A DNA stretch of 64,000 nt from a virus. Positions 10,334 to 42,739 of the stretch are shown in pieces. Below the pieces are notes generated by a model that did no database searches, had not been told where the DNA came from, and worked only from the letters and a program-made list of their open reading frames with translations. The stretch lies in IMG/VR virus record IMGVR_UViG_3300028558_000016, positions 278,014-342,013 of that record; one strand, given 5' to 3'. The first letter of the stretch is position 1, and every line of letters begins with the position of its first letter. The translations under genes and the position numbers were made by a program.

Positions 10334-10336
10334 TTC

Positions 10337-10924: not shown

Positions 10925-11012
10925 TATATAAACCGATTTTGCTTCTGTAAAGATACGGGAAGAAGTAGGGAATAGCTTTCACCTTCACTATGCCGTGGTT
11001 AAGACGATAATA

Positions 11013-11453: not shown

Positions 11454-11464
11454 AATGATTTAGA

Positions 11465-11698
11465 ATGACGTACAAGGTTCAGAACAAATTCAGAATACGC
11501 GAATCATGTGGTGGATCTTATGTCGTAGTTTTCTTCTTCGAGAAGATGGTGGAAGTTACTCTGGAAACCTTGTTGGATGAATGCCCTATAGAACAATACT
11601 ACATCATCAAGGAGAAGAATCAGATCGCATTCAGACTAAAAAATTACGATGACTTTGATAAGATAGGAGATTTCGTGGAAATTAAGAACCCTCAATGA
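11465..11698 (+). CDS. Hypothetical protein (77 aa)
   Basis: ORF followed directly by an intrinsic terminator. Confidence 0.4.
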   Translation: MTYKVQNKFRIRESCGGSYVVVFFFEKMVEVTLETLLDECPIEQYYIIKEKNQIAFRLKNYDDFDKIGDFVEIKNPQ

Positions 11699-13070: not shown

Positions 13071-14042
13071 TTATTCTGTTTCAGTTTCTTTTGTTATTTC
13101 TTTTACTGCTCCTTCTCCAAGGAACTCAATCACCTTCTCGAGGGTGAGATCACAATATTCGTCAATCCAATCTCCGATGTAATAAAGCTTTCTGCTTCCA
13201 ATAACAACCCCAAACAGGATTGGATCTCTTTTTCTTGCAGTCTCTATAATCTTTTCTTCAACGGTTTGTTCGCTTCCTTTTCCATCTGGATCGTAATGAA
13301 GCACGACGTAGTTGTCGAATATGTGGCGGTCATCTGCTTTAATCTTCTTCTCTGCAACGTCATCTGGAATGATCCTCACGAAGTTCTTTATCCAATCAAG
13401 GCGAAGAGCCTTAGGGGATTTCTTTATGAACTTAATTATGTTGTCTTCTGACAAGTACTTGGTCATTCCAATTGCATACAACTGAGCTTCGGCCCTGTAC
13501 ATCTCGATGTCAAATGCCATTGACTGCATCAACGATACTTGTCCAAGTTGTTTAAGCTTTTTAATTGCGGCATCGTAACCTTCTATTTTTTCTCTTACGA
13601 GAACGATTTCTTCCACGCTGTTCTTAACAGAGTTAAAGAATTCTTCTACAGACATTTCAGGTTGAGGTTCTTCTTCTGGCAGCTTGTGTATTTCCATGTT
13701 TGGCACTTGCGCCATGTCCTGCTCCATGCGTATTCGTTCTGCTTCCTTCTTCCTCTTGGACTTACCAAATATCCTTTCAATTATTCCGGGCTTGTTTCCT
13801 GAGTCTCCCATTCCTCCAGCCTGGAATGATCCAGACACAGTTGTTATTGGCCAACCAATAGGAGTGATAAACGAATCGCTTCCTACAACCAATTTGCCTT
13901 CAGGATTTCTTGTGATGTTGTTGTATATCATCATGTGAGCTCCTTCTTCCATTCGGTGTCTCCACTTAGGAAGTTGATAATCCACCTCGAATGCTTCAAA
14001 CACTCTTAATGATTTCTTGTCGTGTGCTAATGTGCTGCTCAT
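13071..14042 (-). CDS. Hypothetical protein (323 aa)
   Basis: ORF; no motif recognised. Confidence 0.45.
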   Translation of the reverse strand: MSSTLAHDKKSLRVFEAFEVDYQLPKWRHRMEEGAHMMIYNNITRNPEGKLVVGSDSFITPIGWPITTVSGSFQAGGMGDSGNKPGIIERIFGKSKRKKEAERIRMEQDMAQVPNMEIHKLPEEEPQPEMSVEEFFNSVKNSVEEIVLVREKIEGYDAAIKKLKQLGQVSLMQSMAFDIEMYRAEAQLYAIGMTKYLSEDNIIKFIKKSPKALRLDWIKNFVRIIPDDVAEKKIKADDRHIFDNYVVLHYDPDGKGSEQTVEEKIIETARKRDPILFGVVIGSRKLYYIGDWIDEYCDLTLEKVIEFLGEGAVKEITKETETE

Positions 14043-18408: not shown

Positions 18409-18776
18409 TACATTGTTGGGTTTTTAGGGGTTAAGAATCCACAGCTGTGCAACCTAACGAGATTGTCAACGTATGAAATTCCATTTTTCGTCAATTCATT
18501 TTCTGCTTCTTCTTTTCCGTTCATGCACACCCATAACGCGTATGGTTTATCTTCTTCATCTTGAGGATGAAATGCTCTTAGCTTTCCTCCAAACGCATTT
18601 ATTGGAATTGCTATTAAATGTATTCGACTATTAATGTCTCTTAGCATTTGTTCAGCCTCAGGCAAACTTCCATTTCCTTGCTTCAGTTCATCTACAAGAA
18701 TCTGTCCAACAAATCCAGCATGGTTGTTCTCCTGGTTGTTGACTGCCAAATTCATTCTATTGATTACGTCTTTCAT
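18408..18776 (-). CDS. Hypothetical protein
   Basis: ORF; no motif recognised. Confidence 0.4.
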   Translation of the reverse strand: MKDVINRMNLAVNNQENNHAGFVGQILVDELKQGNGSLPEAEQMLRDINSRIHLIAIPINAFGGKLRAFHPQDEEDKPYALWVCMNGKEEAENELTKNGISYVDNLVRLHSCGFLTPKNPTM

Positions 18777-19903
18777 TTGAAAATTTTTCTTATTCCATTA
18801 TTTAATTTCTCACACAGACCTGGTTCAACCTCTTCAGGAAGATTAAAATTGTTGTCATACAGAGTTTTAAGCTCCTTCAACTTGCTGTCGCAAGTGTCAA
18901 GCAATTCTTGCAATGAAACTTCTCCCTTGCGTATCTTAAGAAGCTCAGTGGCTTCCGGCCTGCGTGATACAATTCCTTTTCCAAGTGCAATGTCCGTTGC
19001 CATGTTGATAAGACGTTGCATGTGAAGCATATTCTTTCCATCAATCTTTTGTTCGTGACCTTGAACGTCCACCCATCTCGCTTCATTCTTTTCTTTTAAC
19101 CACGTTTGATAAGATCTGTATTCATCACAATGCAGCATCCAAGCGCTTTCATTAAACATTAAAACTGCAACAGGCTCTGCCTCTACGGAAACTTCTGACA
19201 CTCTCAAAGATGTCGATGACTCGTCATCGTTGGTCATTCCTCTTCCTTCGCCCACATATATTCCAAAGTTGTGGTGAGTATGTGGAAGTCTTACAAGACC
19301 TATTTTTGTTGAATCTATTAATGGATTCTTATCAAGCCATTCTTTAATGGTAATGGTTCCTTGCTTATAGGATACGTAGCAGAAATCAAGAATTGTTTTT
19401 CTCTCAAATCTTTCCTTTTCCCAATTCTGTTTCTTATTTTTTCCATGTGCCTTTGCGGTTTGCTCCATTGCATATCCGCTAAAACTCAGGAATGATTTCT
19501 TTGTTATGAACTTCTTGTGATTGAGCAGTATGCTATCCATCAAAGGATGTTTGTATACAATGCAATCCTCAGGTATGTCAAATATCTCAAGCGAGTTAGG
19601 ATTGTTCTTCTCAAGCATTTGAAGAAACTTTCTCAGCTCATAGAATTTCATCTCACATTCTTTTCCATCAGGTAGTTCAAATTTGCCGGTCTCAACCTCT
19701 TCCCAATCGGGAGTGTAGTTAAGATCTGAGAAATCCTCGTCAGGCATTATGAATATTCCTTTGTGATCAACGTCAGAGTCAGGACGGTTTGTTCCATACA
19801 TCTGCGAACCTGAGACGTACTCCAAAAGAATGAGGCCTTTTTTTCTGAGATCATCAACGGTGTATCTCCGTTTCTTTATTTTATTTTCCGTCTTTGCTAC
19901 CAT
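18773..19903 (-). CDS. Pol-beta superfamily nucleotidyltransferase (resembles 'predicted nucleotidyltransferase' proteins often linked to RNA-repair ligases)
   Basis: GSQMYGTNRPDSDVDHKGIFIMP is a GS...D.D nucleotidyltransferase signature; 376 aa with a helical C-terminal region. Confidence 0.55.
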   Translation of the reverse strand: MVAKTENKIKKRRYTVDDLRKKGLILLEYVSGSQMYGTNRPDSDVDHKGIFIMPDEDFSDLNYTPDWEEVETGKFELPDGKECEMKFYELRKFLQMLEKNNPNSLEIFDIPEDCIVYKHPLMDSILLNHKKFITKKSFLSFSGYAMEQTAKAHGKNKKQNWEKERFERKTILDFCYVSYKQGTITIKEWLDKNPLIDSTKIGLVRLPHTHHNFGIYVGEGRGMTNDDESSTSLRVSEVSVEAEPVAVLMFNESAWMLHCDEYRSYQTWLKEKNEARWVDVQGHEQKIDGKNMLHMQRLINMATDIALGKGIVSRRPEATELLKIRKGEVSLQELLDTCDSKLKELKTLYDNNFNLPEEVEPGLCEKLNNGIRKIFK

Positions 19904-25339: not shown

Positions 25340-26788
25340 ATGGCAACAAAATCATCAACAATGTCCGGCGAGGACATTAAAAAAACAGCGATCGATAAAG
25401 GATTAAAGGTCGCAATACTCGTATGTGTGTCAGATGACAACAATAACAAGTATTTCAATATGTACGAACAAGGAGATGGAACTTACATGGTAATCCGCGG
25501 AAGAGTGGACGTTACCGAAATAATCGAAGGTCCATACCCAATGTCAAAATGGGATGTTCATTACAAGGACAAAACAAAAGCAAACAAAAAACCAAAACCT
25601 TACACTGATCAAACTCATTTGTTCTCTGAACAAAAGAAAAGCGATGGTGCAGGAAAGAAAAAAGAAAAATCATCGAACTTCCATTCAAAGAGAACTGCAA
25701 TGGTAATTGATTTCGTGAAACAACTTCAAAAATTCGCAAATCAATCGGTAGAAGAAAACTACACGGTATCAGCCGCAAACGTTACTAAGAAGCAAGTTGA
25801 TTTCGCTCAACAAACTTTAAATCAAATTAGCGACATGGTTAAGAAAGGCGCAGAGGTTGGTCCAATCAATGACAAACTAATGGAGCTTTATCAAATCATT
25901 CCTCGTCGTATGAAACATGTGAATAACCACCTCATCATTACAGATGAAATGGAAAAAACACTTGGTAAAGTTGAGAAGACCGACAAAGAAAAAATGAAAG
26001 AGGCGAAAGCTAAAACATATTCAATGAAGATTAAATCTGATGCCGAGTTACAAAAAGCGCATGACATGATTGCCGGTGAGCAAGATACTCTTGACGTTAT
26101 GGCAGGTCAGGTTGCTGTTGAAGAACAGGAAAAGAAAGATCACGTTGAAACCCCAGGTGCTAAAAAAGAATACGATTTATTGCACGCAATGAAACTTGAT
26201 ATGGAAGATTGCGATAAGTATGAAATTGCAATGCTTAAGAATATGCTTGATCAAAACGCTAAAGCCGGCCACGAAAAGAATTCAAACCTTTTCAAACGTG
26301 CATATCGCGTTAAGAACGATAGCACTGAAGTTGCTTACAACAATTTCATGGGTAAAGTTAAAAACAAGAAGAAGGAATTATTGTGGCATGGAAGTCGCAA
26401 TGAAAACTGGTGGAGCATTTTCCAACAAGGTTTAGTTCTTCGTCCTACCAATGCAGTAATCACCGGTAAGATGTTTGGTTACGGATTATATTTCGCTGAC
26501 AAGGCGCAAAAATCCATAAACTACTCTTCTTATTCTGGAGCATCACGCTCTTACACAGGGGGTTCATCAAGGAATGCAATTCTTGCGGTATATGAAGTTC
26601 ACCAAGGAGATCAATTGGTAATTAAACGTCATGAGCACTCACACTCACAATTGACTGATAAACAAATGGAAAAACACGGTAAAGATTCTGTGTTCGCTCA
26701 AGGCGGTTATGACCTTGTGAATAACGAATACATTGTGTACAAGCAACAACAATGTACTATAAAATATCTTGTTGAAATTGGGAACTAA
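25340..26788 (+). CDS. Poly(ADP-ribose) polymerase (PARP) catalytic-domain protein with N-terminal WGR-like and helical regions
   Basis: LLWHGSRNENWWSIFQQGL (H-G-S), GKMFGYGLYFADKAQKS (Tyr), and DLVNNEYIVYKQQQCTIKYLVE (catalytic Glu) align one-to-one with the PARP1 LLWHGSR/GIYFAD/LLYNEYIVYD motifs. Confidence 0.75.
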   Translation: MATKSSTMSGEDIKKTAIDKGLKVAILVCVSDDNNNKYFNMYEQGDGTYMVIRGRVDVTEIIEGPYPMSKWDVHYKDKTKANKKPKPYTDQTHLFSEQKKSDGAGKKKEKSSNFHSKRTAMVIDFVKQLQKFANQSVEENYTVSAANVTKKQVDFAQQTLNQISDMVKKGAEVGPINDKLMELYQIIPRRMKHVNNHLIITDEMEKTLGKVEKTDKEKMKEAKAKTYSMKIKSDAELQKAHDMIAGEQDTLDVMAGQVAVEEQEKKDHVETPGAKKEYDLLHAMKLDMEDCDKYEIAMLKNMLDQNAKAGHEKNSNLFKRAYRVKNDSTEVAYNNFMGKVKNKKKELLWHGSRNENWWSIFQQGLVLRPTNAVITGKMFGYGLYFADKAQKSINYSSYSGASRSYTGGSSRNAILAVYEVHQGDQLVIKRHEHSHSQLTDKQMEKHGKDSVFAQGGYDLVNNEYIVYKQQQCTIKYLVEIGN

Positions 26789-27204
26789 TGGAAGAAAACA
26801 AAAACGATATAGAAGAAATCGACGGTGTCCAAGAAGAGAGGGGTGAATTCCCTCCCTTCTTTGGCTTGTTTAGAATGACAAGATTTGAACGTGTACTTCA
26901 TGCTTCCATCATTGGATTAATTGGAGCAGCATTCATCGCATACACTCTGTGGAGCAAAATCATTCCAGGACAAAACCCAACTAAGGAAATGCTACAGATG
27001 AATGATTGGTATGTTATACCATGTTTCGTATTATCTGTTTTGCTTCTGTTGTCTGGATTTCCAGTTGTAATGAAAGACAGAAGTTTTGGAAACATGATGC
27101 TTCAACAATTGCTTAGATGCTTCATGGCGATAATATGGATGGTCTTATATTTTGAAGCAAGTCAAATATTATTCATAATTTTTTACAGACACTTACCAGC
27201 ATGA
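26788..27204 (+). CDS. Membrane protein (3-4 TM helices)
   Basis: ATGA overlap with PARP; several hydrophobic helices. Confidence 0.45.
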   Translation: MEENKNDIEEIDGVQEERGEFPPFFGLFRMTRFERVLHASIIGLIGAAFIAYTLWSKIIPGQNPTKEMLQMNDWYVIPCFVLSVLLLLSGFPVVMKDRSFGNMMLQQLLRCFMAIIWMVLYFEASQILFIIFYRHLPA

Positions 27205-27701
27205 GTAAAGAAAAACATAATCATAAGGAAGGCTTTGAATGTGAAGCTTGCAAAATTGGAATGAAAGCAATGAAAGAAAAAGAAGCTGGATTCCTAAAAA
27301 ATCCAGGTTGGTTCGCTCATTATGTTCCAGATCCTACATATCCAAATGGAATGAATGTGCACACCCACGGTCTTGAAGAAAATTTCAAGCATCTTGATTT
27401 GCAAATATGTCTTGCTATGGATCAACGTATATGCCATCAAATTTTAAACAATGCCATTGGAGAAATAAAGGCAGGAAAGAAATTTGAGGCCGGAGAAAAA
27501 TACGATGATGTCATTGAAGCAAGTCCAGCATACAAAGACCTTAAACTAAAGGTTCTTTTCCTTGAAGCCGAGGAAGGTGGAAGAAAAGTTCTTCGCATGA
27601 TTTTTCCTGAAAAAGATGGAAGTTTTATGGGGCAAATGTCATCCAAACAAATGGAAGGTTGTAAGGTTCCAGAGGATTTAATCTTATATTATACGTTATG
27701 A
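27201..27701 (+). CDS. Hypothetical protein, DUF4262-like
   Basis: GWFAHYVPDP...MNVHTHGLEENFKHLDLQICL resembles the conserved core of an uncharacterised family. Confidence 0.35.
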   Translation: MSKEKHNHKEGFECEACKIGMKAMKEKEAGFLKNPGWFAHYVPDPTYPNGMNVHTHGLEENFKHLDLQICLAMDQRICHQILNNAIGEIKAGKKFEAGEKYDDVIEASPAYKDLKLKVLFLEAEEGGRKVLRMIFPEKDGSFMGQMSSKQMEGCKVPEDLILYYTL

Positions 27702-27931
27702 ATTCACACCTATTGATGACAGAAACTTCCAACATAGATTGGAAAGAAAACAGAGTTATTGACAATGATAAGCTTGAAAAAACGGTTATTCCATGGGAAG
27801 ATAACATTGAGGTAACCAATGGTCTTGATGGAGAAAAGAAGACAATTAAGATGAAAACTGTGTCTTTATATGAACATATTATGTTAAAAGATGGAAAAAA
27901 ATACAAAATATTGCACATGTTATCAAAATAA
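27698..27931 (+). CDS. Hypothetical protein
   Basis: ORF with ATGA junction. Confidence 0.35.
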   Translation: MNSHLLMTETSNIDWKENRVIDNDKLEKTVIPWEDNIEVTNGLDGEKKTIKMKTVSLYEHIMLKDGKKYKILHMLSK

Positions 27932-27995: not shown

Positions 27996-28817
27996 ATGAG
28001 TACAACAGCCACAAAAAAAATCGACAAGGATGCTGTTTTTAAAACAGCAGTTAAATTAATGACTGACAATGGAAAAACTTCTTCATTGGAAGTAAAAGAA
28101 GAATTACGTAAAGATGGGTATTGGGCAAAACAAGAACCCGTTCGTGATTTGCTTCGCGAATTAAAAAGTGAACACAATTGGAACGTGAATGATGTTGGTC
28201 ACATTGAATATTCTCTTCCAACAGCAACATCCGCAGCAACAACCGGTCCTTCTCCAATTGAAGGTGACATCATCGATTTAATCGTTGAGACAACCAACAT
28301 TGACGAAGATGATGTTGAAACTACAAGCATTCTTACTACAGATCTTTCAATGGACCATCTTGATATTATTTCATTGCAAATGGCCATCGACAAAAAATTC
28401 AGTGTTGACTCTTCTAAAGATTGGAACAATATCAACACCGTTGACGATGTTATTAAGTTGGTGGAAAAGCTTACAGCCGGAACTCCTTTTGCGAAAGCTC
28501 CAACTACTTCTTTACATTCAGTTATGAATCCAAAAACAACTGGAAAACCAAGAAAACCAAAAATGGTTATTAATGATTCTCAAAATCCATCAACGGATCC
28601 TCGTGTTACAATCAACATTGATTACAAGAAGATTGTTACAGGCACGAAAGATGCCAAAGACACATGTGATGGAAAAGACTGGTATGTTTCTAACAAAGGA
28701 ACTGATCCGGTAATTTATGATCAAAAATACAATTCCAACAACGTGAGAACCGTATATGCTCGTTTGAAAGGAATTAAGATACAGGAAGTTCGCGCAGCTC
28801 GCGTTGAACATCTATAG
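27996..28817 (+). CDS. Hypothetical protein with an acidic segment loosely resembling a carrier-protein DS(L/M)D motif
   Basis: DLSMDHLDIISLQMAIDKKF is vaguely ACP-like; weak. Confidence 0.35.
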   Translation: MSTTATKKIDKDAVFKTAVKLMTDNGKTSSLEVKEELRKDGYWAKQEPVRDLLRELKSEHNWNVNDVGHIEYSLPTATSAATTGPSPIEGDIIDLIVETTNIDEDDVETTSILTTDLSMDHLDIISLQMAIDKKFSVDSSKDWNNINTVDDVIKLVEKLTAGTPFAKAPTTSLHSVMNPKTTGKPRKPKMVINDSQNPSTDPRVTINIDYKKIVTGTKDAKDTCDGKDWYVSNKGTDPVIYDQKYNSNNVRTVYARLKGIKIQEVRAARVEHL

Positions 28818-28872
28818 GAAAACGGTAAACCCATGGTTGCCATGGTTGGTTGTCCTTTGGGTATTATCGTGA

Positions 28873-28904
28873 AAGGGTGGGAGGAAACTTCCACCCTTTT
28901 AATT
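28873..28904 (+). terminator. Rho-independent terminator
   Basis: aaGGGTGGgaggaaacttCCACCCtttt. Confidence 0.55.
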
Positions 28905-29280
28905 TTCCATGACTTTAAGAAGTATATAGCTTTAAATAACCAACACAGTCATGGCCAAAGCAAAAGCAGCCTCCACCAACTCAGTAAGGGCTTTAAACAG
29001 TTCAAAGAAGAACAGACCCGGAGTTCATTCCAAAAAGAAGAATTCAAGTCTTAAATCATCTAAAAACTATAAAAAGGCATATAGAGGACAGGGTAGATGA
29101 AACATTGTTTTGAGATTAGGGTATAGCTTTAGAAGGTTGCATCCAGCAAAAACAACTATCGTCTATGGCTTCGGCCTTCGATGATCCTACGACCTAAGCA
29201 ATCTGTGTTAGTTTCATTTGTTTTATTTTTATTAAAAGTGTAAGAGTCCAGGCCCCGTAAGGCCTGGATTTCTTATTTTT
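28905..29280 (+). ncRNA. Candidate structured non-coding RNA region
   Basis: About 370 nt without a credible ORF. Contains a GGCttcgGCC UUCG-tetraloop hairpin and ends in the strong hairpin TCCAGGCCccgtaaGGCCTGGA plus a U-run (29246-29275). Confidence 0.25.
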
Positions 29281-29314: not shown

Positions 29315-30472
29315 ATGCAGATACCTAAAGACATAGCAGAAATTCAACAAAAATTCATCGCCGCTGGAAAAGAAATTTTCCTCGTTGGTGGATGTGTTCG
29401 TGATTTCAAGCTTGGTCTTGAGCCCAAAGATTTGGACATGGCAACCAATGCCTTTCCAGAAGAAATTGAAACCATCCTCAAAGGAGTTGAGATGGACCTT
29501 ACAGGCAAAAGTTTTGGAGTCATGCGGGTTCGCAGTGAGTTCGATCCAAACGGATACGAAATTGCCACATACAGAGAAGATGAGAGTGCTGGAAGAAAAC
29601 CGACCGTAAAGATCGGATCAACCATGGAAAACGATGCGTGGAGAAGAGACTTCACGATCAACGCTCTTTACTATGATATTTCCAACAAGACTATAATTGA
29701 TCACACTGGCGGGCTCAATGATTTAGAAAACAAAATCATTCGTGCTTGTGGCGATCCTGCGAAAAGAATTAACGATGATGCTTTGAGAATGCTTAGGGCA
29801 GTTCGTTTCAAAAATACTATTGGTGGAACTATTGATGTTGACTTGCATAATGCAATGTTGGCCAATCCTGTTTTACAAGGTCCAGACAAAGATGGAAATA
29901 TAGTACCAATATCACAGGAGAGAATAGCTGAGGAATTCCTTAAAGGTCTTTCCAAAAGCTACAACATGGATCTCGTTGACCAATATGTGAAAGATTTAAT
30001 GACATACCAATTTCTTGGACAAGTGTTCAGAGGACTTCACGTAAATGATAATTTTACATGCAACTCAAGAAAGCCTGAGATAATGATTGCGGATCTTTTA
30101 CGTTTTAATACGAATCACAAGGATTTATTTAATAAGCTTGTTTATGATTGCAAATTCAGTATTGATATTGCCGAAGGAGTTATTTTTCTTTTGAGCCTTG
30201 AAGATATTGATGAGGACAAAGTGTACAAGCTAAGAAAAAGAATGGACAGCAAAACCAAATTAAATAAGGATGATCTTATTATTTATTCAGGTTTAATGGT
30301 AGAGAATGGAATGATTGGAAGAGTTGCTTATGTACATGCATTCACTAAATATTCCATAACAACAAGCGGAGATGAATTAAAAGAAAAGGAAGGATTTGTT
30401 GATGGAGCAGAACTTGGAGCAGAGATAGCAAAAAGAGAGAAAAACAATTTTTTAAAAATATTTACACAATGA
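29315..30472 (+). CDS. cca: tRNA nucleotidyltransferase (CCA-adding enzyme / poly(A) polymerase head-domain family)
   Basis: FLVGGCVRDFKLGLEPKDLDMAT (GGxVRD...DxD) and RRDFTINALYYD motifs of class II CCA enzymes. Confidence 0.75.
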   Translation: MQIPKDIAEIQQKFIAAGKEIFLVGGCVRDFKLGLEPKDLDMATNAFPEEIETILKGVEMDLTGKSFGVMRVRSEFDPNGYEIATYREDESAGRKPTVKIGSTMENDAWRRDFTINALYYDISNKTIIDHTGGLNDLENKIIRACGDPAKRINDDALRMLRAVRFKNTIGGTIDVDLHNAMLANPVLQGPDKDGNIVPISQERIAEEFLKGLSKSYNMDLVDQYVKDLMTYQFLGQVFRGLHVNDNFTCNSRKPEIMIADLLRFNTNHKDLFNKLVYDCKFSIDIAEGVIFLLSLEDIDEDKVYKLRKRMDSKTKLNKDDLIIYSGLMVENGMIGRVAYVHAFTKYSITTSGDELKEKEGFVDGAELGAEIAKREKNNFLKIFTQ

Positions 30473-31161
30473 ACGAATCAAAAGACTTAAAAAGTTTAAT
30501 AGCATCCTTGCAGGAAGGAAGCGAGTTTTGTGATTTCATGATAACAAAGCTTCTTCACATGGATGGGTCCACCGATGCCGATCTTAAAAAAGATTACAGA
30601 AAACTCTTTAAAGAAGGAGGAGCTGATGCTTTTAAAGATGACATGAAAAATGGAAAGAAATTAAAGTATACAGAAGAAGAGCTTGAAATGATCGAGGAAA
30701 AAATAAATGAAATTTTTCCAGAAGGTCATGAGCCACTCACAACAACAATGATACCATTCGGTTTTTATCTTGGACAATTATTAAGAAAGAAGATACCAGG
30801 TGCTGAATGGAAAGTGACAGATGAGGTTAACAAGAAAAACAGTATATGGGATGTCTTTATTGAATTTAAAAATTCTGACGGATATACCATGCAGGCTAAA
30901 CCGTTCATGCGCGTTGATAAATTTTGGAGAAGGAGAGAAGATAAGATGTCAGCATTCGTTAAGATGATTGAAATGACATCTGAAATTAAAATGGATCCTG
31001 AGTATTGGAATAAACGCGCAGATGATGAAGGTTGGATTGAAACCGCTAACGAAATGTCGTTCAGGGTTTTTCAAGGAAGCAAGAAAGATAAAATAGATGG
31101 AGATTTCTCTAAAGCAAAGGGAATGTTTCATAACGGAAAATTTGGAGATGGAAAATATTAA
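30469..31161 (+). CDS. Hypothetical protein
   Basis: ORF with ATGA junction; no motif recognised. Confidence 0.45.
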   Translation: MNESKDLKSLIASLQEGSEFCDFMITKLLHMDGSTDADLKKDYRKLFKEGGADAFKDDMKNGKKLKYTEEELEMIEEKINEIFPEGHEPLTTTMIPFGFYLGQLLRKKIPGAEWKVTDEVNKKNSIWDVFIEFKNSDGYTMQAKPFMRVDKFWRRREDKMSAFVKMIEMTSEIKMDPEYWNKRADDEGWIETANEMSFRVFQGSKKDKIDGDFSKAKGMFHNGKFGDGKY

Positions 31162-32488
31162 TAAAATAAAAGACATACACTCGAGTGATGCCTATGGAAT
31201 TCTGGTAGAGACTGGATGTGGTCTTGCGGTATCTAATGAATTGCTTGAAGTCAGCGGTGCATCTAATACGGTTTATTTTGCTGAATGTCCATACAGCAAG
31301 GAATATCAAACATTCAAGTATGGCGAAACCAATGCGAGAGCGGTTTCAATGGAAAACATAAAGCACATAATGAATTATCATAAAGCTTTAGATAAACCAG
31401 AAAACGTTAACTTCATTTATGCTTCATCCTTTCAAGTAGGAGAACACAACGATAAATCAACTCATGGATGGATAGGTCTTTCATTAAAAGAAGATGACAG
31501 ACGTTATTTCCACATCTCAATACATGAGTCATTAACACGAAAACAATACATCGATAAAATATCTAAGATAGGAATTGACATTTTACATTTTTACATAAAC
31601 AAATCAACTGGTACAAATTTCATACCGAGCAATTGTTGCATTGACATAGTACTTAATGGAAAAGGTGAACAGGTCAATTTAACTGATATGTTTGTTTCTC
31701 TTAGATATGAAGACGATGAAAACTTCTTATGCTTCAAAGAAGGAAAATTAGTTAGAATGGAAGATCTTTTCAGAGATCAAAAGAACATAGTATTATTCAA
31801 GGGAAGCTTTAATCCAATCCATGCCGCTCACATACACACTGCACAATTAGCAAAGGATGAATATGGAATTGAACCTGTGTTTGTTATTAGTTCTTCAGTG
31901 TATCAAAAAGGATGGATAGAACCTGAGGATCTTAAGAACCGAGTGGAAACATTAAACGAACTTGGCTATCCTGTTATAATAACTAAAGATGGTTACTTTA
32001 ACAAGAACACGTCCTATATTAGACGTAAATTCAAACAACCTTTGATATACGTAGTTGGTTCGGATACATTAAACAGAATATTGGAAAGCTCATATAACAT
32101 TTTAAATCCAGAACTTAGCGAGAGATATAATCATTACGTCAATCAATTGATTTCCATGAAGCCTGAGAATGAACTGATAACAGACGAAGAATTGGATGAA
32201 ATAGAAAAAATGGCATTACAACATTATTTAAGAAGATTCAAAGAGGATTTCAAAGATGTAAAATTCTTCGTTGTAAATAGACCAGGGAGCGAATTGCACG
32301 AAGATGCAAAACGAATAGAAGAATTTTATTCAATGGTTGAAGAACATCCTGAGTATTTCCATATAAGCTCAACTAAAATTCGTGCCATGCTTATAGCTGG
32401 AGATTATGAGACAATTAAAAAATTGATACCAGAAAAAATATTTGAAAAGTATATTAACCAAAAAACAAACAACCATGTCAACAACTAA
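31148..32488 (+). CDS. Fusion of a CinA/PncC-like (NMN deamidase-like) domain and NMN/NaMN adenylyltransferase
   Basis: N-terminal domain VETGCGLAVSNELLEVSGASNTVYFAECPYSKEYQ parallels the PncC segment [35 protein letters not shown]. C-terminal domain GSFNPIHAAH is the (H/T)xGH nucleotidyltransferase motif. Confidence 0.55.
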   Translation: MENINKIKDIHSSDAYGILVETGCGLAVSNELLEVSGASNTVYFAECPYSKEYQTFKYGETNARAVSMENIKHIMNYHKALDKPENVNFIYASSFQVGEHNDKSTHGWIGLSLKEDDRRYFHISIHESLTRKQYIDKISKIGIDILHFYINKSTGTNFIPSNCCIDIVLNGKGEQVNLTDMFVSLRYEDDENFLCFKEGKLVRMEDLFRDQKNIVLFKGSFNPIHAAHIHTAQLAKDEYGIEPVFVISSSVYQKGWIEPEDLKNRVETLNELGYPVIITKDGYFNKNTSYIRRKFKQPLIYVVGSDTLNRILESSYNILNPELSERYNHYVNQLISMKPENELITDEELDEIEKMALQHYLRRFKEDFKDVKFFVVNRPGSELHEDAKRIEEFYSMVEEHPEYFHISSTKIRAMLIAGDYETIKKLIPEKIFEKYINQKTNNHVNN

Positions 32489-33144: not shown

Positions 33145-33990
33145 ATGTATAACATAAAATACCCGGTCGCATTCCACCCAGTGGATATGGCCATAACAAG
33201 AATACACGAAGGAAGAATACAAGTTCTCCTTGCGCAAAAAGTAAAAGACACAGAAGGTGGAGCTAACATTGTTAGATTCCCTGGAGGTTTCCTTGATGTG
33301 TGTGACTCGTGTGCTGAAGAAGCAGCATTGAGAGAAGCAATGGAAGAAACAGGAATGAGATTTGGAAACTCTGCTATGGCAGATTATTTCATCGGATACT
33401 TTGCTAAGAAGAAACCATTTACCGATAAGTTGAACAAACTTATAGAATCAAACGGTGATGCAAAGGAAATAACTGAAACCATCAACCAATTGCATGCAAT
33501 CAAAATATCCGATGATGCTTTAGCATGGTTGAGAACAAGAACAACTTACATTGGTTCAACTAAGATTGATGATGCAAGATATGCTGACACAGATCACAAA
33601 GTAATCACAAGCTTTTATGAGCTACATCCAAATCCAAAATTCGATAAGGATGGTGAAGGTCCATTTGATGACATCGCAAGAACAAAATGGTTTTTCCTTT
33701 CAGACATTAAAGAAGAAATCATGCACAAGTCGCATGTTCCATTGTTCAACATGTTATTTGAAAAATACAAAGCAGAGAGACTTGCAGACAACGTGTTTAA
33801 CGCTGCTGAAGAGGTATTCAAATCAACAGAGGAAATGTTCAACACCTTCAAAAAAGAAACTGATGAGATTTTTGATGGAATAAAAAAGAAAATGCCTGAA
33901 TACGAAAAGAAAGTGGATGAAGCAATGCAAGGCATGGGAAAGAAAATGGATAAGTTCTTTAGCGGTTTAGAAGATATTTTAAAATCTTAA
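33145..33990 (+). CDS. Nudix hydrolase with C-terminal helical extension
   Basis: GGFLDVCDSCAEEAALREAMEETGM contains a Nudix-box-like REAMEETGM (REUxEExGU). Confidence 0.6.
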   Translation: MYNIKYPVAFHPVDMAITRIHEGRIQVLLAQKVKDTEGGANIVRFPGGFLDVCDSCAEEAALREAMEETGMRFGNSAMADYFIGYFAKKKPFTDKLNKLIESNGDAKEITETINQLHAIKISDDALAWLRTRTTYIGSTKIDDARYADTDHKVITSFYELHPNPKFDKDGEGPFDDIARTKWFFLSDIKEEIMHKSHVPLFNMLFEKYKAERLADNVFNAAEEVFKSTEEMFNTFKKETDEIFDGIKKKMPEYEKKVDEAMQGMGKKMDKFFSGLEDILKS

Positions 33991-34287: not shown

Positions 34288-36081
34288 ATGAAAAGATCAA
34301 CTAAACATTTCGGAGATTATTCCGATGCGGAGTTAAAAAGCATGAGTCCTGAGCAACTCATTGCTATCATCTTGGAAGGTCAGAACGATGATAACTTCAT
34401 CATCATGACAGACTCTTACAAAATGACTCATCACCTGCTTTATCCTAATGGATTAAGAAGGGTTTACTCATATATGGAACCACGCGGCGGCGAAATGCCT
34501 TACACCGTATTCTTTGGATTGCAGTATTACATCAAAAGGTATCTTGCTGGAAGAAGAATCACCAAAGAGAAAATCGAAGATGCACGTCAAGCAAACATTG
34601 CACACTTTGGATTTGATTGCTTTGATGATACAATGTGGTATCACATATTAAATAAGCACGATGGTAAACTTCCATTGAGAATTAAAGCTATTCCTGAAGG
34701 AACTCCGATCGCTGTTAAGAATATCGTGATGGATATGGAAAACTTAGACCTTGATAATTGTGCAGCATTGACAAACATCACAGAAACATTGTTAATGAAA
34801 ATCTGGGCAACATGTACTGTCGCAGCTTACAATAGAATCATCAAGGAATTAATAACAAAGAATCACGCGATCACTTCAGACCTTCCAGCATTCTTGATTG
34901 ATTACATGCACCATGATTTTGGTTACAGAGGAACTTCATCAGAAGAGACTGCACGCTTAATGGCTGCGGCTGCAATGACAAGTTTTAAAGGAACTGACAC
35001 AATGGGCGGTTTAAGCTTAATCAAGAAATATTATTCTCCTGATGGAGCAACATGGTCTGAATGCATGGCAGGTTTCTCTGTTATTGCGTCTGAACACTCA
35101 GTTGTTTGTTCATACGGTGGAAGACACAAAGAAGCGAAATCATACCTTGACATTATAAACAAGGTTAAGAACCATCCTAAAATTAAGATAGCAAAACCAT
35201 TGAGCGGAGTAATTATTCTATCTTTGGTGTCTGACACTTATAACATCTACAATGTGTCTAAGAAAATTCTTAAACAATTGGAAAAAGAATTTATTGGATG
35301 GACAAACGATAACGGCATTCCAATTAAGATTGTTATTCGTCCTGACTCGGGAGTTCCTGCTAACGTGTTATTTGGATATAACGATGTTGTTAAAGGAATG
35401 GTTGCTGACAAAGATGCTTTAGCAGTAGCACCAATCGACCTTTGCAAAAGAGTTGCAGATGACATGTCGATAACTTTAGAAGAAGGAACAGAGCTTGTGA
35501 CCAAAGGAGTATTTGAAATACTGTTCGATGAATTTGGATCAACAACAAACACTAAAGGTTACAGAGTATTCCATCCACAAATAGGAGTATTACAAGGTGA
35601 TGGCGTTAAGTATACTGTCATCGATGAATTCCATGAGATCATGAAAACGAAAGAATACATGATAGACATCATGATGCTTGTTGTTGGTTCAGGCGGAAAA
35701 AATCTACAGGCTCACGATCGTGATGAACAAAAATGGGCAATCAAAGCAACTGAGGTTGGCATCGATAATGACTCAGTAATGGGTGGTATAGAAACAGTTC
35801 AAATAGAAAAAAATCCAATCACAGATCCTGGAAAGAAATCTAAAAAAGGAGATCTTAAGCTTGGCAAGAAAATGCTTAAGGTAGGCCCTGATTACGATTT
35901 CACAAAAGAATGGATGAACTTTAAAACCTTCCAAGAAGGTGAAGAAGGATTTGATACTGTAACAAACCTTTTAGTTCCTGTATTTGAAATGGGAGAAATC
36001 CTCGTTGAATACGATTTTGAAGAAGTGAGAGCGAACAGTGCGGTAGTATATCCTCAAATTAAAAAAACGGCTTTAGCCTAA
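34288..36081 (+). CDS. nadV: Nicotinamide phosphoribosyltransferase (NadV/NAMPT)
   Basis: FIIMTDSYKMTHHLLYPNGLRRVYSYMEPRGG closely parallels the NAMPT segment [31 protein letters not shown]; 597 aa. Confidence 0.85.
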   Translation: MKRSTKHFGDYSDAELKSMSPEQLIAIILEGQNDDNFIIMTDSYKMTHHLLYPNGLRRVYSYMEPRGGEMPYTVFFGLQYYIKRYLAGRRITKEKIEDARQANIAHFGFDCFDDTMWYHILNKHDGKLPLRIKAIPEGTPIAVKNIVMDMENLDLDNCAALTNITETLLMKIWATCTVAAYNRIIKELITKNHAITSDLPAFLIDYMHHDFGYRGTSSEETARLMAAAAMTSFKGTDTMGGLSLIKKYYSPDGATWSECMAGFSVIASEHSVVCSYGGRHKEAKSYLDIINKVKNHPKIKIAKPLSGVIILSLVSDTYNIYNVSKKILKQLEKEFIGWTNDNGIPIKIVIRPDSGVPANVLFGYNDVVKGMVADKDALAVAPIDLCKRVADDMSITLEEGTELVTKGVFEILFDEFGSTTNTKGYRVFHPQIGVLQGDGVKYTVIDEFHEIMKTKEYMIDIMMLVVGSGGKNLQAHDRDEQKWAIKATEVGIDNDSVMGGIETVQIEKNPITDPGKKSKKGDLKLGKKMLKVGPDYDFTKEWMNFKTFQEGEEGFDTVTNLLVPVFEMGEILVEYDFEEVRANSAVVYPQIKKTALA

Positions 36082-36082: not shown

Positions 36083-36562
36083 ATGGAAAAACAAGTAAAA
36101 ATATCTCAGTCTGTTGCCATCTTGATTGATGGCAACAACATTGAGATCAGCATACATAAGGATGCAGAGAAAGATAACGTGATGTGTGATTTCGATAATC
36201 TCGTTCCCAAGCTTATTGGCGACAGATCATTAAATCGCTTGGTGTACTTCAGAGAAGGAAAAAGCATCTCGCCTAAATTGGCAGACAGACTCCATAAATT
36301 ATTTTATGGAGTTGTTAAGCCATGCAGGAAGAATGCTGACATTCGTTTAACCATTGAAGCCATACAACTTGCAAACAAAGTGGACACAATAATAATTATG
36401 AGTGGAGATTCTGATTACATTGAGCTTGTTCAACATTTGCAATCACAGGGATTAAGAGTTGAAATAGCCGGAGTCCAATCAAGCACTTCAAAGTCATTGA
36501 TTGAAGCGGCCGATTTCTTCCATCCAATAACTAAAGACGATTGGTTCACATTTAAAAATTAA
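36083..36562 (+). CDS. NYN/LabA-like domain protein (predicted RNase fold)
   Basis: VAILIDGNNIEIS at the N-terminus and IIMSGDSDYIELV...GLRVEIAGV. Confidence 0.6.
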   Translation: MEKQVKISQSVAILIDGNNIEISIHKDAEKDNVMCDFDNLVPKLIGDRSLNRLVYFREGKSISPKLADRLHKLFYGVVKPCRKNADIRLTIEAIQLANKVDTIIIMSGDSDYIELVQHLQSQGLRVEIAGVQSSTSKSLIEAADFFHPITKDDWFTFKN

Positions 36563-36567: not shown

Positions 36568-36885
36568 ATGAAGCAAGACGAAGAAGAAGACCAAATCATT
36601 TGTATTTGTTCAAAAGAAAATTCGGCTCATACCATTGGTATAAGAGTTCCATGCCGTGGTCCAGGCTGTAATGCTCAGCTTTGGCTGAGTGACAGCACTA
36701 TTAATAGAATTAAAAAGGAAAAAACGGATGTTGATTTAACGAAAACACCTCCTACCCCATTGTGTATGGATTGTGGATTGAAGGCTTTGAAAAATTCAAA
36801 GGATTTTAAAATAGCTCCACCAACCACCGAACAGATGGAAGAAATATTAAAGGCAATGACAGAAATCGATGCTCAACAAAGATGA
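36568..36885 (+). CDS. Cys-rich zinc-binding protein
   Basis: CICS...CRGPGC...CMDC cysteine clusters. Confidence 0.45.
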   Translation: MKQDEEEDQIICICSKENSAHTIGIRVPCRGPGCNAQLWLSDSTINRIKKEKTDVDLTKTPPTPLCMDCGLKALKNSKDFKIAPPTTEQMEEILKAMTEIDAQQR

Positions 36886-37501
36886 CATAATCAAAGCAGC
36901 AGGAGTCCATCCATTAAAGGTTAAAAACATTTACGTGTTTGGATCTCGGGTATATGGAACCGCAACAGCGGACTCTGACTATGACATCATTGTTGTTGCT
37001 AATTCCATGGATGAAAAGAGAGAAGTTGTTTATAAGGATCTCAATATCCATATTCATACTCCAGATAAATTCATTAGAGATCTCAAACAGCTTGACATGC
37101 ATAACCTCGAGTGCATCTTTGCTCCAGAAGGAGCAAAGATATTGGAAAAAGTAAATTATGTCGATGCTAATTTTAAGATCAATCCAGACCAAATGAAATA
37201 TGCTGCAATGAGCCAATCATTCAACAGGTTTCACACGGCCAAGGTGAAAATTCTCGATGGAGATTTTCACAGAGGAATTAAAAGCTTATTTCATTCATTA
37301 AGGATATTATTGTTTTCGATGCAAATACTTCGTAATGGAAGGATCGATGATTTTTCAGAAGCTAACAAATTTTGGGCCGACATCAAGATAGACATTCAAC
37401 TTACAAAAAATATCACCAACGAGGAAGAGATGTGGAGATATTTCAAAGATAAATATCTTCCACAAAAAATTGAATTAGAAAAACGATTAAAAGAAATGTA
37501 A
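36869..37501 (+). CDS. Minimal nucleotidyltransferase (MNT/KNTase-like) with C-terminal helical domain carrying an Rx6H HEPN-like motif
   Basis: YVFGSRVYGTATADSDYDIIVV is the GS...D.D nucleotidyltransferase motif. RGIKSLFH fits R(x4-6)H. Confidence 0.5.
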   Translation: MLNKDDIIKAAGVHPLKVKNIYVFGSRVYGTATADSDYDIIVVANSMDEKREVVYKDLNIHIHTPDKFIRDLKQLDMHNLECIFAPEGAKILEKVNYVDANFKINPDQMKYAAMSQSFNRFHTAKVKILDGDFHRGIKSLFHSLRILLFSMQILRNGRIDDFSEANKFWADIKIDIQLTKNITNEEEMWRYFKDKYLPQKIELEKRLKEM

Positions 37502-38845: not shown

Positions 38846-39348
38846 ATAAGCTCGAATATAGAATGTATGGAATAGTTCCTTACAACATTTCAGAAATACA
38901 AAAAGGAATCCAATTTGGACATGCTGTTGTAGAATACTCGTTGAAGTATTTTAAGAACGAAGACTTTCAACAGTGGGCCAAGAAGCACAAAACATTCATG
39001 GTTATGAATGGAGGAACAACCAATATGGGAGAAGGAACAATTCAAGGAAGACCCGATTGGATGGTTGAAGAACTTAAAGGGTCATTAAATAAATACGCCG
39101 ATTTACTTTCCAAAAATAAAATCAAATGCGCTTATTTCTTTGAGCCAGACTTAAATGATGCTTTAACTGCCGCGGTATTTCTTGCAGATGAAAGAGTTTT
39201 CGACAAGATTAAATATCCTGATTATGTTCCTCTTTCTTTTGATTTAGCAAAAAATGATCCACAACACGAGAAAGAATGGGTCAAATCTATAGGAGGAAAA
39301 CAAAATGTTTTCCTTCGTGAATTCATATCTAAACTAAGATTTGCATGA
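38842..39348 (+). CDS. Hypothetical protein
   Basis: ORF with ATGA junctions on both sides. Confidence 0.4.
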   Translation: MNKLEYRMYGIVPYNISEIQKGIQFGHAVVEYSLKYFKNEDFQQWAKKHKTFMVMNGGTTNMGEGTIQGRPDWMVEELKGSLNKYADLLSKNKIKCAYFFEPDLNDALTAAVFLADERVFDKIKYPDYVPLSFDLAKNDPQHEKEWVKSIGGKQNVFLREFISKLRFA

Positions 39349-40031
39349 AAACGACAGACAAATACGTATTATTTTATACTGAGGTATTTTCTCAGTGGCA
39401 TCCTTCCAATTTTGAAGTAGGAGGTAAAAAATTCTGCACAGCAGAACAATTCATGATGTATTTCAAAGCATTAACGTTCGGTGATCAAGAGATTGCAGAC
39501 AAGATATTAGCAACAAATAGTCCACGTGAACAAAAGAAACTTGGACGCGCTGTTAAAGGATTTGATGCTGTTAAATGGAATGCAATAGCCAAGGAAGTTG
39601 TATTCAAAGGAAACAGAGCTAAGTTTCAACAGAATCCAGAAATGTTCGAACAATTAATGGCAACAGGACACAAAGAACTTGTTGAAGCTTCCCCTTATGA
39701 TACTATATGGGGAATAGGCTTTGATGAAAATGCTCCTGAAGCTCTTGATAAGTCAACATGGAATGGAACAAATTGGCTTGGCGAAGTATTAACAAAGCTT
39801 AGAGATGTTCTTAGAAGAGAACAGACAATTCAAAACATAGTGAAACATGGTGAAGCTGAATTGGAAAAATTTGCCAGGGATTATCCAAATGACATAGGAC
39901 GATTGTATGAAAGCTATAAAAAATTGAAAACACAATCTTGGTCTGAAGATTTTTTAAGAGGATATTTAGGAGCTATAACAGATTTAATTATTATTAAAAA
40001 AGGACATTGGGGAGACTCATTTGTAAAATAA
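39345..40031 (+). CDS. NADAR-domain protein (YbiA-like; NAD/ADP-ribose N-glycosidase family)
   Basis: VLFYTEVFSQWHPSNFEVGGKKFCTAEQFMMYFKA...LGRAVKGFD...KFQQNP...LVEASPYDTIWGIGFDE parallels the E. coli YbiA pattern. Confidence 0.7.
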   Translation: MKTTDKYVLFYTEVFSQWHPSNFEVGGKKFCTAEQFMMYFKALTFGDQEIADKILATNSPREQKKLGRAVKGFDAVKWNAIAKEVVFKGNRAKFQQNPEMFEQLMATGHKELVEASPYDTIWGIGFDENAPEALDKSTWNGTNWLGEVLTKLRDVLRREQTIQNIVKHGEAELEKFARDYPNDIGRLYESYKKLKTQSWSEDFLRGYLGAITDLIIIKKGHWGDSFVK

Positions 40032-40668: not shown

Positions 40669-41592
40669 GTGAAAAGATTCCACGATTATAGCACATTCAA
40701 CGGCCTTGAAAATCTAAAACAGATTGTTGCCAAGAAAGATCCTTCCATGAGCGAAGACCTCATGAAGGCACTATTTCCATTAAGAGATAAGAACATTGGC
40801 AAAACATTGAAGGACATCATAAAGAGATTTGAAAAATCCGCTGAATACGATACACCGAACAAATGGTTCAGTCCAAACAAGTATAACACTTTTATGGAAT
40901 ACTTTCAAAGAGGATTAACCGACAAGAAGAAAGAAGAAATAGAAGCAACCATAGATCAATATCTCATGGTCATGCCTTCTGAATCAAACATTGAATCAAT
41001 AGGAAATTTCTCAGACACTTCATCGATATTAAGATTGAAGAAACCGACTAAAGACGTAGTTAAGGATTTAATGGATTTTGGAATAAGTGATGTGAGCACA
41101 TTAAACTTTATAAGCCTAAAGCTTCTCAAATGTTATTACCACAGGGTGCATTGCCCAGTAAGCGGAACTATACAAAAGATAACATTCATTGGAAGAGAAG
41201 AACCGTTGTTTGGAGACAATTCCCTATGGGTGGTTGAATTCAATTCAGAAGAAGGAAGAATTTACATGCTTGTAGTTGGAGAACTTTCTATACAGGATTT
41301 TAATTTCAACTTCAAAGAAGGAGACAAGGTTAACAAATTTGAAGAGCTCGGAAAATTCAATTGGGGTTCTCAGCTCGTTTTAATATATGCAAAAGATTCA
41401 TTCGTAAGCGAACCGTTGATCATAGAAAAGGAGAAATATTTTGTTGGTGATGGAATATTTAATAAGACAAAAATAGTTCAAGGCGATATTCTTAATTCAA
41501 TGCCAATTGACCAGATAGGAAATGGACAAAGAAACGGAACAATATACGGAGATGATATTTTAAAAGCACCAACAGGAGCAAACATATTTTAA
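40669..41592 (+). CDS. Phosphatidylserine decarboxylase-like protein
   Basis: GTG start. C-terminal LGKFNWGSQLVLIY resembles the PSD self-cleavage motif LGxFxMGSTVIxLF. EYFQRGL resembles the PSD FFxRxL motif. Length 307 aa. Confidence 0.45.
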   Translation: MKRFHDYSTFNGLENLKQIVAKKDPSMSEDLMKALFPLRDKNIGKTLKDIIKRFEKSAEYDTPNKWFSPNKYNTFMEYFQRGLTDKKKEEIEATIDQYLMVMPSESNIESIGNFSDTSSILRLKKPTKDVVKDLMDFGISDVSTLNFISLKLLKCYYHRVHCPVSGTIQKITFIGREEPLFGDNSLWVVEFNSEEGRIYMLVVGELSIQDFNFNFKEGDKVNKFEELGKFNWGSQLVLIYAKDSFVSEPLIIEKEKYFVGDGIFNKTKIVQGDILNSMPIDQIGNGQRNGTIYGDDILKAPTGANIF

Positions 41593-42658: not shown

Positions 42659-42739
42659 CAACGTGGTGAAAGTACATTCAGACTGTACCATCAGATTTTA
42701 GCTACTGATGAAGCATTTGTGGTGATGCTGCTGCGAATT

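Follow-up and report, generated by a model that had tools for sequence, protein, structure and literature searches.

What would a bacteriophage do with a poly(ADP-ribose) polymerase? Eukaryotic DNA repair depends centrally on PARP signalling, which is also targeted by drugs. Of the bacterial and phage enzymes, only two from bacteria and none from phages have, to our knowledge, been assayed. We consider the question for a gene at 25340..26788 (+ strand) in a 64,000-nucleotide stretch of viral DNA, positions 278,014 to 342,013 of IMG/VR record IMGVR_UViG_3300028558_000016, which we call the window. The open reading frame (ORF) begins with ATG and encodes 482 residues. Pfam, PHROG 23333, a family profile, an AlphaFold2 model and Foldseek all bear on its identity, and on sequence and modelled structure the gene is a genuine clade-1-type PARP, with predicted WGR, helical (HD) and ADP-ribosyltransferase (ART) domains and a complete NAD+ site. 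We regard this identity and architecture as secure.

Searches with the protein placed it clearly. Pfam PF00644 is matched with E = 4.6e-26 and 92 bits (cutoff 26.7 bits) over profile positions 2-197 of 199, which puts the protein in the PARP family, the H-Y-[EDQ] clade of ARTs. Against PDB sequences, phmmer retrieved PARP2 (7e-18), PARP1 (1e-16), PARP3 (1e-7) and PARP4 (2e-3), and both phmmer and the family profile score the protein far nearer to PARP2 and PARP1 than to PARP3, PARP4 or tankyrase. Given the Pfam and PDB matches, the assignment is far above chance. PHROG 23333 ("polymerase") matches residues 33-480 (E = 1e-42), so the family is one already recognised among phage proteins.

The ART catalytic domain occupies residues ~280-481 (26177..26782, +), as delimited by Pfam, phmmer, a 44-sequence homolog alignment (A1), the family profile and conservation. 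A sequence-only reading of this DNA had proposed a PARP with an intact H-Y-E triad at exactly the coordinates of the ORF, and the four peptides it quoted are all in the translation: GDGTYMVIRGRVDV (residues 45-58), LLWHGSRNENWWSIFQQGL (347-365), GYGLYFADKAQKS (380-392) and NNEYIVYKQQQCTIKYLVE (461-479). The triad is indeed intact. It consists of H350 (codon 26387-26389), Y384 (26489-26491) and E463 (26726-26728), all on the + strand, and it aligns with the WHGS, GIYFAD and NEYIVY segments of PARP1 and PARP2; in the phmmer alignments to PDB sequences, WHGS (within LLWHGSR), GxYFAD and NEYIVY correspond to the window protein residue for residue. H350, Y384 and E463 are invariant in A1, as are G54 and R55 near the N terminus. 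We also examined conservation in 161 fetched homologs (82 viral and 79 bacterial), counting sequences with a residue in the relevant column. The NAD+-site residues H350, G351, S352, Y384, K391, Y395 and E463 are kept in 82 of 82 viral homologs and in all 79 bacterial homologs so counted.

The N-terminal half of the protein is less obvious to standard profiles. Alone, the window protein reaches neither Pfam WGR (PF05406) nor PARP_reg (PF02877), and PARP was its one match among the three; within the family, 22 of 44 members reach WGR unaided and 7 of 44 weakly reach PF02877. The regulatory domain of bacterial PARPs is often missed by Pfam although a helical domain is modelled (PMC8120803, PMC5966428); the window protein behaves in the same way. 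Our assignment of both domains rests on the family profile and the structure model. The profile built from A1 matches the WGR-HD-ART portion of PARP1 (7s6h, 4dqy) and PARP2 (6usj, 7aeo) in one stretch at E ~6e-29, setting the family's yGRv against sWGRVG of PARP1. A WGR-type domain is thereby placed at residues ~23-95 (25406..25624, +), with a four-stranded sheet, a helix and the motif R53-G54-R55, on the combined grounds of model, profile and conservation. An HD/PARP_reg-like domain follows at residues ~118-270 (25691..26149, +), where model helices (120-267), the profile and weak phmmer matches agree. It contains a clade-specific insertion of ~35 residues (aa ~199-235 in A1).

In the AlphaFold2 model (pLDDT 86.3, pTM 0.84), a sheet plus helix at the N terminus (residues 23-79) is joined through a disordered stretch (100-111) to a bundle of helices (120-267), after which comes an alpha/beta domain (280-481). 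The best Foldseek matches are 8g0h_D (PARP1, 4.9e-20), 4dqy_C (PARP1, TM-scores 0.59/0.62) and 6x0l_P (PARP2). Alignments span ~520 columns of full WGR-to-catalytic chains of PARP1 and PARP2 bound to DNA breaks, including the WGR domains of 4dqy_C and 6x0l_P, and isolated PARP1 catalytic domains are matched at E ~1e-17. The sequence-only reading had suggested superposing a model on the PARP1 ART fold; the fold is present and the catalytic residues are aligned. The helical region it described also lies where PARP1 and PARP2 have theirs, between WGR and ART, according to the family profile, the model and Foldseek. Its WGR-like segment needs a correction: profile and model back the domain, and the motif itself reads RGR rather than WGR. 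Position 53 is Y, W or F in the other fetched homologs, and Arg occurs there only in the window clade. Its PARP1 counterpart is presumably W589, the aromatic residue of the WGR domain that stacks on the DNA end.

How unusual is such a gene in a phage? The sequence-only reading called PARPs sporadic in bacteria and double-stranded DNA viruses, which understates their spread: the window protein has >3,400 homologs, relatives are encoded on at least 117 IMG/VR contigs and in many Bacteroidota genomes, and the family has its own PHROG. The novelty implied by its title does not stand either, since H-Y-E phage PARPs are already published (PMC4245714, PMC7824862, PMC9503650). PARP genes of Aeromonas phage Aeh1 and Cellulophaga phage phi4:1 were described by Perina et al. 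(2014; PMC4245714), who found the H-Y-E triad kept in three of the four viral PARPs they identified and gave WGR plus PARP as the architecture typical of bacteria. Jumbo-phage PARPs were noted by Iyer et al. (2021; PMC7824862), who suggested that they modify host proteins, and Iyer et al. (2022; PMC9503650) counted the PART/PARP family among the commonest viral ARTs. Among bacterial enzymes, HaPARP of Herpetosiphon aurantiacus is DNA-dependent and makes poly(ADP-ribose) (PAR), and CdPARP is active in vitro (PMC8120803, PMC4245714). The window PARP is thus one more member of a known phage family, and a phage-encoded PARP as such is not new. What is new here is its company: an unannotated winged-helix partner, a lineage-specific TARG1 eraser and a ligase-rich context.

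The partner is encoded a short way downstream. The PARP stop codon overlaps the ATG of a 138-residue ORF with three hydrophobic segments (26788..27204, +; TAATG), which has no Pfam, PHROG or PADLOC match and no homolog in the other PARP loci, being found in this phage only. A DUF4262 protein follows (27201..27701, +; Pfam PF14081, 5.8e-12), its start overlapping the preceding stop (ATGA); the same gene occupies the same position in L172, a relative with 71% PARP identity. Next, again with an overlapping start (ATGA), is a 77-residue ORF (27698..27931, +) with no homologs in Pfam or other PARP loci. After a gap of 64 nt comes p273 (27996..28817, +), the phage version of the PARP partner. Just beyond it lies the strongest terminator-like hairpin of the region, with a 14-bp stem (28870..28901, +); a second is at 29244-29271, and 14 such sites were found against 5.7 +/- 3.0 expected in shuffles. 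The transcription unit from PARP to p273 probably ends at 28870-28901, and the two genes form a putative operon. Since a sigma-70 scan was not above chance (27 promoters found, 28.9 expected), we claim no promoter.

The p273 protein combines a winged-helix N-terminal domain (aa ~7-75, nt 28014-28220), an acyl-carrier-protein (ACP)-like domain (aa ~85-159, 28248-28472; PHROG 5934, 2.8e-10, with NCBIfam support) and a conserved C-terminal motif (aa ~225-273). The ACP-like domain reads DLSMDHLD, with His at the phosphopantetheine Ser position; in the L172 ortholog (10278-11468) there are two ACP-like domains, of which the second carries a canonical DSLD. Phage partners in general add an acidic linker, sometimes ACP-like domains, and the conserved C-terminal motif. 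The N-terminal domain itself has no Pfam, NCBIfam or PADLOC match. Its AlphaFold2 model (pLDDT 80) has an H-b-H-b-H-hairpin (H1-S1-H2-H3-hairpin) winged-helix topology, and essentially all of its top 50 Foldseek matches are winged helix-turn-helix proteins (Z-alpha, AspA, BlaI/MecI, Fur, PadR, ArgR), with TM-scores of 0.5-0.69 and weak E-values of 0.02-0.14. The modelled fold class is therefore supported as winged-helix, and no specific subfamily can be assigned. A search of PDB sequences with the partner profile returned a spurious designed-repeat match, and ArgR at E = 0.018; we set this search aside.

The association of this domain with PARP is much broader than the window. Exhaustive HMMER searching yielded 1,129 representative clusters at 50% identity, a size we take from this search; a word-indexed short-profile search had given 9 proteins. 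A partner of 86-100 residues lies directly downstream of PARP on the same strand in 60 of 79 Bacteroidota loci, and several of the 19 loci without one are contigs that end at PARP. In the 49 bacterial loci with at least 3 kb on both sides, BLAST clustering found the partner in 42 and any other neighbour in at most 16. The p273 N-domain profile matches once per locus, beside PARP. Conversely, four proteins that were found with nothing but the partner profile are each encoded beside a PARP or with a single gene between, and one of the four loci is an ARH-PARP-partner trio. The cultured phage phi4:1 encodes the partner too, as gp030, and its locus runs CCA-type enzyme, PARP (gp031), gp030, DNA ligase. 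In one bacterial locus (L089, 3511-4470) a 315-residue protein fuses the partner's winged helix to a second WGR domain (PF05406, 1e-6), and many proteins of 313-322 residues in the exhaustive search suggest that this fusion is recurrent. A WYL-domain DeoR-type regulator is divergent to the PARP-partner operon in 16 of 49 bacterial loci; the example in L156 (7579-8616, -) matches 7u02/8tp8 at E ~4e-10 and also PafBC. WYL regulators control DNA-damage responses and some defence islands. The partner goes without mention in the searchable papers on bacterial PARPs.

To survey phage loci, every ORF lying up to 5 kb from PARP was clustered across 52 dereplicated phage groups. In the phage set, as in the bacterial set, the two highest-ranking "conserved neighbour" clusters proved to be antisense shadow ORFs within the PARP gene itself, and we left them out. 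Among genuine neighbours, the N-terminal ~56-75 residues of p273 rank first: they occur in 17 of 52 groups, on either side of PARP, mostly on its strand and in many cases directly adjacent. The second is a family lying 4 bp upstream of PARP in 13 of 52 groups (a subset within L037-L085; for example L069, 9466-9963). We had considered this neighbour, "unk166", as a divergent p273 N-domain and rejected the idea (hhalign probability 0.5%). It is a TARG1/OARD1 macrodomain, matching 4j5q at E = 8.5e-26 with the motifs around the catalytic Lys and Asp aligned; this Lys/Asp pair is the catalytic pair of TARG1 (PMC8120803). Partner and macrodomain never occur together (0 of 30 groups). Bacterial TARG1 sequences numbered only about thirty in a 2021 review (PMC8120803); set against 13 of 52 phage groups, this leads us to suspect that phages may be a large unrecognised reservoir of TARG1-type macrodomains. 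ARH was also considered as a general eraser and rejected, as it occurs in 3 of 79 bacterial loci and one phage group. A relative, L168, encodes an ARH with its PARP.

Also recurrent are an ATP-dependent DNA ligase and Pol III alpha (12 of 52 groups each), RNA ligase and ERCC4 (8 each), RlaP (7), and NAD-dependent LigA, an ExoX-like protein and a CCA-type enzyme (5 each). Some DNA or RNA ligase lies within 5 kb of PARP in 25 of the 52 groups. The ligases, nucleases and polymerases that recur near PARP in related phages are consistent with a function at nucleic-acid breaks.

Downstream of p273, the window encodes a CCA-type enzyme, an NMNAT-like protein, a NUDIX protein, NAMPT, an NYN protein, an RlaP-like protein, a second NUDIX protein and a NADAR protein, in that order. 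The first is a PolyA_pol-head/CCA-adding-type nucleotidyltransferase (29315..30472, +; Pfam PF01743, 1.1e-32), whose counterparts adjoin PARP in phi4:1 and the bacterial locus L005 and lie near it in L003, L007, L024, L029, L034 and L050. The NMNAT-like cytidylyltransferase (31097-32488, +; CTP_transf_like, 1.3e-10), the first NUDIX protein (33145-33990, +; Pfam/PHROG) and NAMPT (34288-36081, +; NAMPT_N and NAPRTase at 1e-32 and 4e-29, phrog_448 at 4.5e-112) follow. Judged by these matches, the window appears to hold the NAMPT and NMNAT-type gene pair that is the feature of phage NAD+ reconstitution pathway 2, defined as NAMPT plus nicotinamide mononucleotide adenylyltransferase (PMC13464706). 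The NADAR-domain ADP-ribose hydrolase (39345..40031, +; Pfam PF08719, 3.5e-50) is, besides the two NUDIX proteins, the only candidate in the window for removing ADP-ribose; the phage TARG1-like family has no BLAST match within the 64 kb.

This gene order belongs to a clade. It is common to L003, L007 and L172 (51-71% PARP identity) and is not that of the wider family. Within 10 kb of PARP, NAMPT occurs in 4 of 82 loci, NMNAT and NUDIX in 2 of 82, NADAR homologs in 4 of 82 and CCA-enzyme homologs in 6 of 82. We therefore rejected a general tie between PARP and NAD+ salvage and, because the synteny is confined to the window, L003, L007 and L172, regard the linkage as a clade feature and not a family rule. 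In L004 (12054-15520, ~46% PARP identity), phosphoribosyl-pyrophosphate-synthetase-like and short NAPRTase-like genes replace NAMPT and NMNAT. This pair looks like the other phage NAD+ route, that of ADP-ribose recycling ("NARP1"; names as in PMC13464706), and on that footing PARP phages may carry either NAD+ pathway.

Given these observations, we lean, with modest confidence, towards a PARP that acts as a break-activated ADP-ribosyl writer in phage nucleic-acid repair, together with the winged-helix partner and a phage-supplied pool of NAD+. Activation by nucleic acid is suggested by homology with PARP1/2 and the DNA-dependent HaPARP and by the ligase and nuclease neighbours. The helical domain would hold the active site closed until the WGR domain bound a discontinuity, such as a nick, a break or a phosphorylated end, and so opened it. 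Once open, the enzyme would transfer ADP-ribose from NAD+ to itself, to proteins close by and/or to the nucleic-acid end. The p273 protein, presumably co-transcribed with PARP, would probably serve as cofactor, substrate or regulator. The enzyme would thus act within a phage programme of nucleic-acid repair and joining, with NAMPT and NMNAT replenishing NAD+.

Several observations weigh against this proposal. In all phage members, Asn occupies the equivalent of a PARP1 tyrosine that we take to be Tyr986. E463 is necessary, not sufficient, for polymer synthesis, and the H-Y-E triad alone is no guarantee of it: PARP3 and PARP4 are mono-transferases despite having H-Y-E. Arg53 replaces the aromatic that contacts DNA, and DNA sensing may therefore be altered in the window clade. 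Among window ORFs of at least 150 residues (64 of ~482 kb of phage sequence), there is no macro, PARG or ARH domain. Because of Arg53, the Asn and the lack of a PAR eraser in the 64 kb, we are cautious about both "poly" and DNA sensing. Ligases, too, are absent from the 5 kb on either side of the window PARP: the small ligase ortholog is 29 kb away at 55390-56070, having moved from the position 1.5-2.3 kb upstream of PARP that it holds in L003, L004, L006 and L007. The clade-limited NAD+-salvage genes may serve a separate counter-defence function, and the adjacency of PARP and partner in bacteria could partly reflect shared Bacteroidota ancestry. Finally, the searchable literature yielded no study, biochemical or genetic, of a phage PARP.

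The same neighbourhood invites another reading, in which the main substrate is the nucleic-acid end itself: ADP-ribose would cap 5'- or 3'-phosphorylated DNA or RNA, marking, protecting or priming it for ligases, CCA-adding and RNA-repair enzymes. PARP1-3 can ADP-ribosylate DNA-end phosphates in vitro. The recurrent neighbours are suited to such a role, comprising ATP-dependent and NAD-dependent DNA ligases, RNA ligases, the CCA-adding enzyme and RlaP, and in the window a tRNA cluster is accompanied by a complete RNA-repair kit. The TARG1-type eraser of 13 of 52 groups also removes phosphate-linked ADP-ribose from nucleic-acid ends (PMC8120803), but TARG1 removes Glu/Asp-linked ADP-ribose equally. 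Moreover, the characterised bacterial homologs were assayed as PAR polymerases that modify proteins, and the neighbourhood fits protein signalling at breaks as well. We consider end-capping unlikely as the main activity.

A conflict module is harder still to sustain. Here foreign or broken DNA would set off PARP as a toxin that consumes NAD+ or modifies DNA, the winged-helix protein or the TARG1 macrodomain would be its antidote or repressor, and phages would carry the module to exclude superinfecting phages or as a defence captured from the host. The two-gene operon with a small second gene of DNA-binding type has the right form, the macrodomain resembles the DarG antitoxin, and a divergent WYL-domain regulator is present in 16 of 49 bacterial loci. 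Partner and macrodomain are mutually exclusive in the 30 groups, which also speaks for this reading, but this exclusivity may follow phylogeny, as the two partner types occupy different ranges of PARP similarity. PADLOC-DB v2 has no match for the PARP, p273, the bacterial partner, the bacterial PARP or the three intervening ORFs. The phage gene sits in replication and repair blocks, and the window phage invests in NAD+ synthesis and not in its depletion. On these grounds we judge the toxin reading improbable. About equally improbable is damage-independent host takeover, with host RNA polymerase, translation or defence factors ADP-ribosylated as by T4 Alt/ModA/ModB: it has been proposed for jumbo-phage PARPs (PMC7824862), and ARTs are a common first-line strategy of phages (PMC9503650), but the predicted WGR and autoinhibitory helical domain are conserved and would imply ligand-gated activity, the gene lies outside any head or packaging context and has no MuF fusion, its neighbours are repair and ligation genes instead of early takeover genes, and the same operon exists in cellular Bacteroidota, where takeover makes no sense.

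Returning to the break-activated writer, we tentatively suggest a wider form of it, to which we give somewhat less than even credence: that WGR-PARP and its winged-helix partner make up a conserved two-component module of Bacteroidota and of their large phages, a counterpart, in prokaryotes and viruses, of PARP break signalling. The partner would then be a DNA-targeting cofactor, the main acceptor, or a repressor released by PAR, and phages would have wired the module to ligases, RNA-repair enzymes and NAD+ of their own making.

The genome that carries the gene is a huge phage. The sequence-only reading had assumed a phage origin, which the collagen-like tail fibres and phage ATPases in the window bear out; nucleotidyltransferases and eight tRNA genes are also present. 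A contig of 482,156 bp encodes the identical PARP protein, which was also found in two further samples. Megablast of 20-32 kb against GenBank phages gave no match, which indicates that no close sequenced relative is among them; by tblastn, the nearest GenBank phage PARP has 35.5% protein identity and belongs to an unannotated 462-kb metagenomic phage. The host is probably a member of the Bacteroidota, to judge from sequence similarity, since the closest cellular PARP homologs (37-44% identity) are almost all from this phylum (Saprospiraceae, Cytophagales, Spirosomataceae, Microscillaceae). One relative is assigned elsewhere: a 425,361-bp contig of a "Candidatus Pacearchaeota archaeon" metagenome-assembled genome (L119) equals an IMG/VR viral contig (L012) in size and PARP coordinates, and is probably a jumbo phage mis-binned as an archaeon. 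The tail-fibre genes are three consecutive collagen-like paralogs of 463, 745 and 674 residues (1287-6950, +). An ORF at 13071-14042 (-) matches a PHROG transposase family (1.5e-23) at a switch of gene strand from + to -. PDB sequence searches with the ORFs at 58161-59246 and 60647-61891 returned no match.

The RNA- and tRNA-repair kit is spread over eight loci: 18773-19903 (-), 29315-30472, 36083-36562, 36869-37501, 44604-45308, 48482-49225, 49588-50535 and 55390-56070. Searches back two RlaP-type nucleotidyltransferases, the CCA-type enzyme, an NYN nuclease, a small ligase/capping-like enzyme and a bifunctional polynucleotide kinase/3'-phosphatase (7e-20 to mammalian PNKP). Motifs point to two more members: 44604-45308 is a probable RNA ligase by its KxDG motif, the Pfam RNA_ligase match not being assigned to this ORF by homology, and 48482-49225 is a probable 2H phosphoesterase by its two HxT motifs. 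The eight tRNA genes (42576-46519, +; six of them in 42576-43198) are all for Leu (tag, taa, caa, gag) or Ser (gga, tga, gct, cga), an oddly restricted repertoire made up only of class II tRNAs with a long variable arm. Just ahead of the cluster is a phosphatidylserine-decarboxylase-family protein (40669-41592, +; Pfam 2.4e-17). Between tRNA-Ser(cga) and tRNA-Leu(gag) lies a CobB-like sirtuin (SIR2; 45722-46432, +; 9.5e-46 to 6rxj/1s5p), the window's second NAD+-consuming enzyme.

PARPs of this family abound in large phages, are strictly conserved at the active site and lie embedded among ligases and repair genes. Their lineage-dependent pairing with a TARG1-type eraser or a winged-helix protein gives rise to hypotheses on PARylation outside eukaryotes, for which Cellulophaga phage phi4:1 (gp030/gp031) offers a tractable cultured phage-host system. 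Were the two-component module borne out, the partner family would be a new class of PARP accessory factor. The locus may be relevant, too, to how the eukaryotic PARP1/2 module arose.

Among known systems, DarT-DarG and SirTM-macro share a transferase/hydrolase layout with 13 of the 52 phage groups, in which the TARG1/DarG-like macrodomain lies 4 bp upstream of PARP. The window locus differs in having no macrodomain; in its place is the winged-helix protein, which has no hydrolase features. Human PARP1 and PARP2 have the same three domains in the same order, and the window protein keeps their H-Y-E triad, the Gly and Ser after the His, and the second Tyr, the Lys and the Met of the NAD+ site. 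Identity to them is nevertheless ~20-22%, and the window protein is without zinc fingers, BRCT domain or a PARP2-type N-terminal tail, whereas it has RGR, Asn at the Tyr986 position, the 35-residue HD insertion and a separate partner. Closer in form are HaPARP, CdPARP of Clostridioides difficile CD160 and the Bacteroidota "ADP-ribose polymerase" proteins, which share the WGR-(helical)-ART layout with H-Y-E; for HaPARP and CdPARP the likeness is drawn from published descriptions. Unlike these bacterial enzymes, the window PARP is phage-borne and sits in a context of NAD+-salvage and RNA-repair genes. The PARPs of phi4:1 (gp031), Aeh1, Xanthomonas/Stenotrophomonas jumbo phages and Klebsiella phages belong to the same family, at 28-35% identity by tblastn. 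The BLAST match to phi4:1 gp031 starts at query residue 124, the N-terminal region not being alignable by BLAST, but the phi4:1 locus resembles that of the window in its company, with the partner gp030, a CCA-type nucleotidyltransferase and a DNA ligase adjoining PARP.

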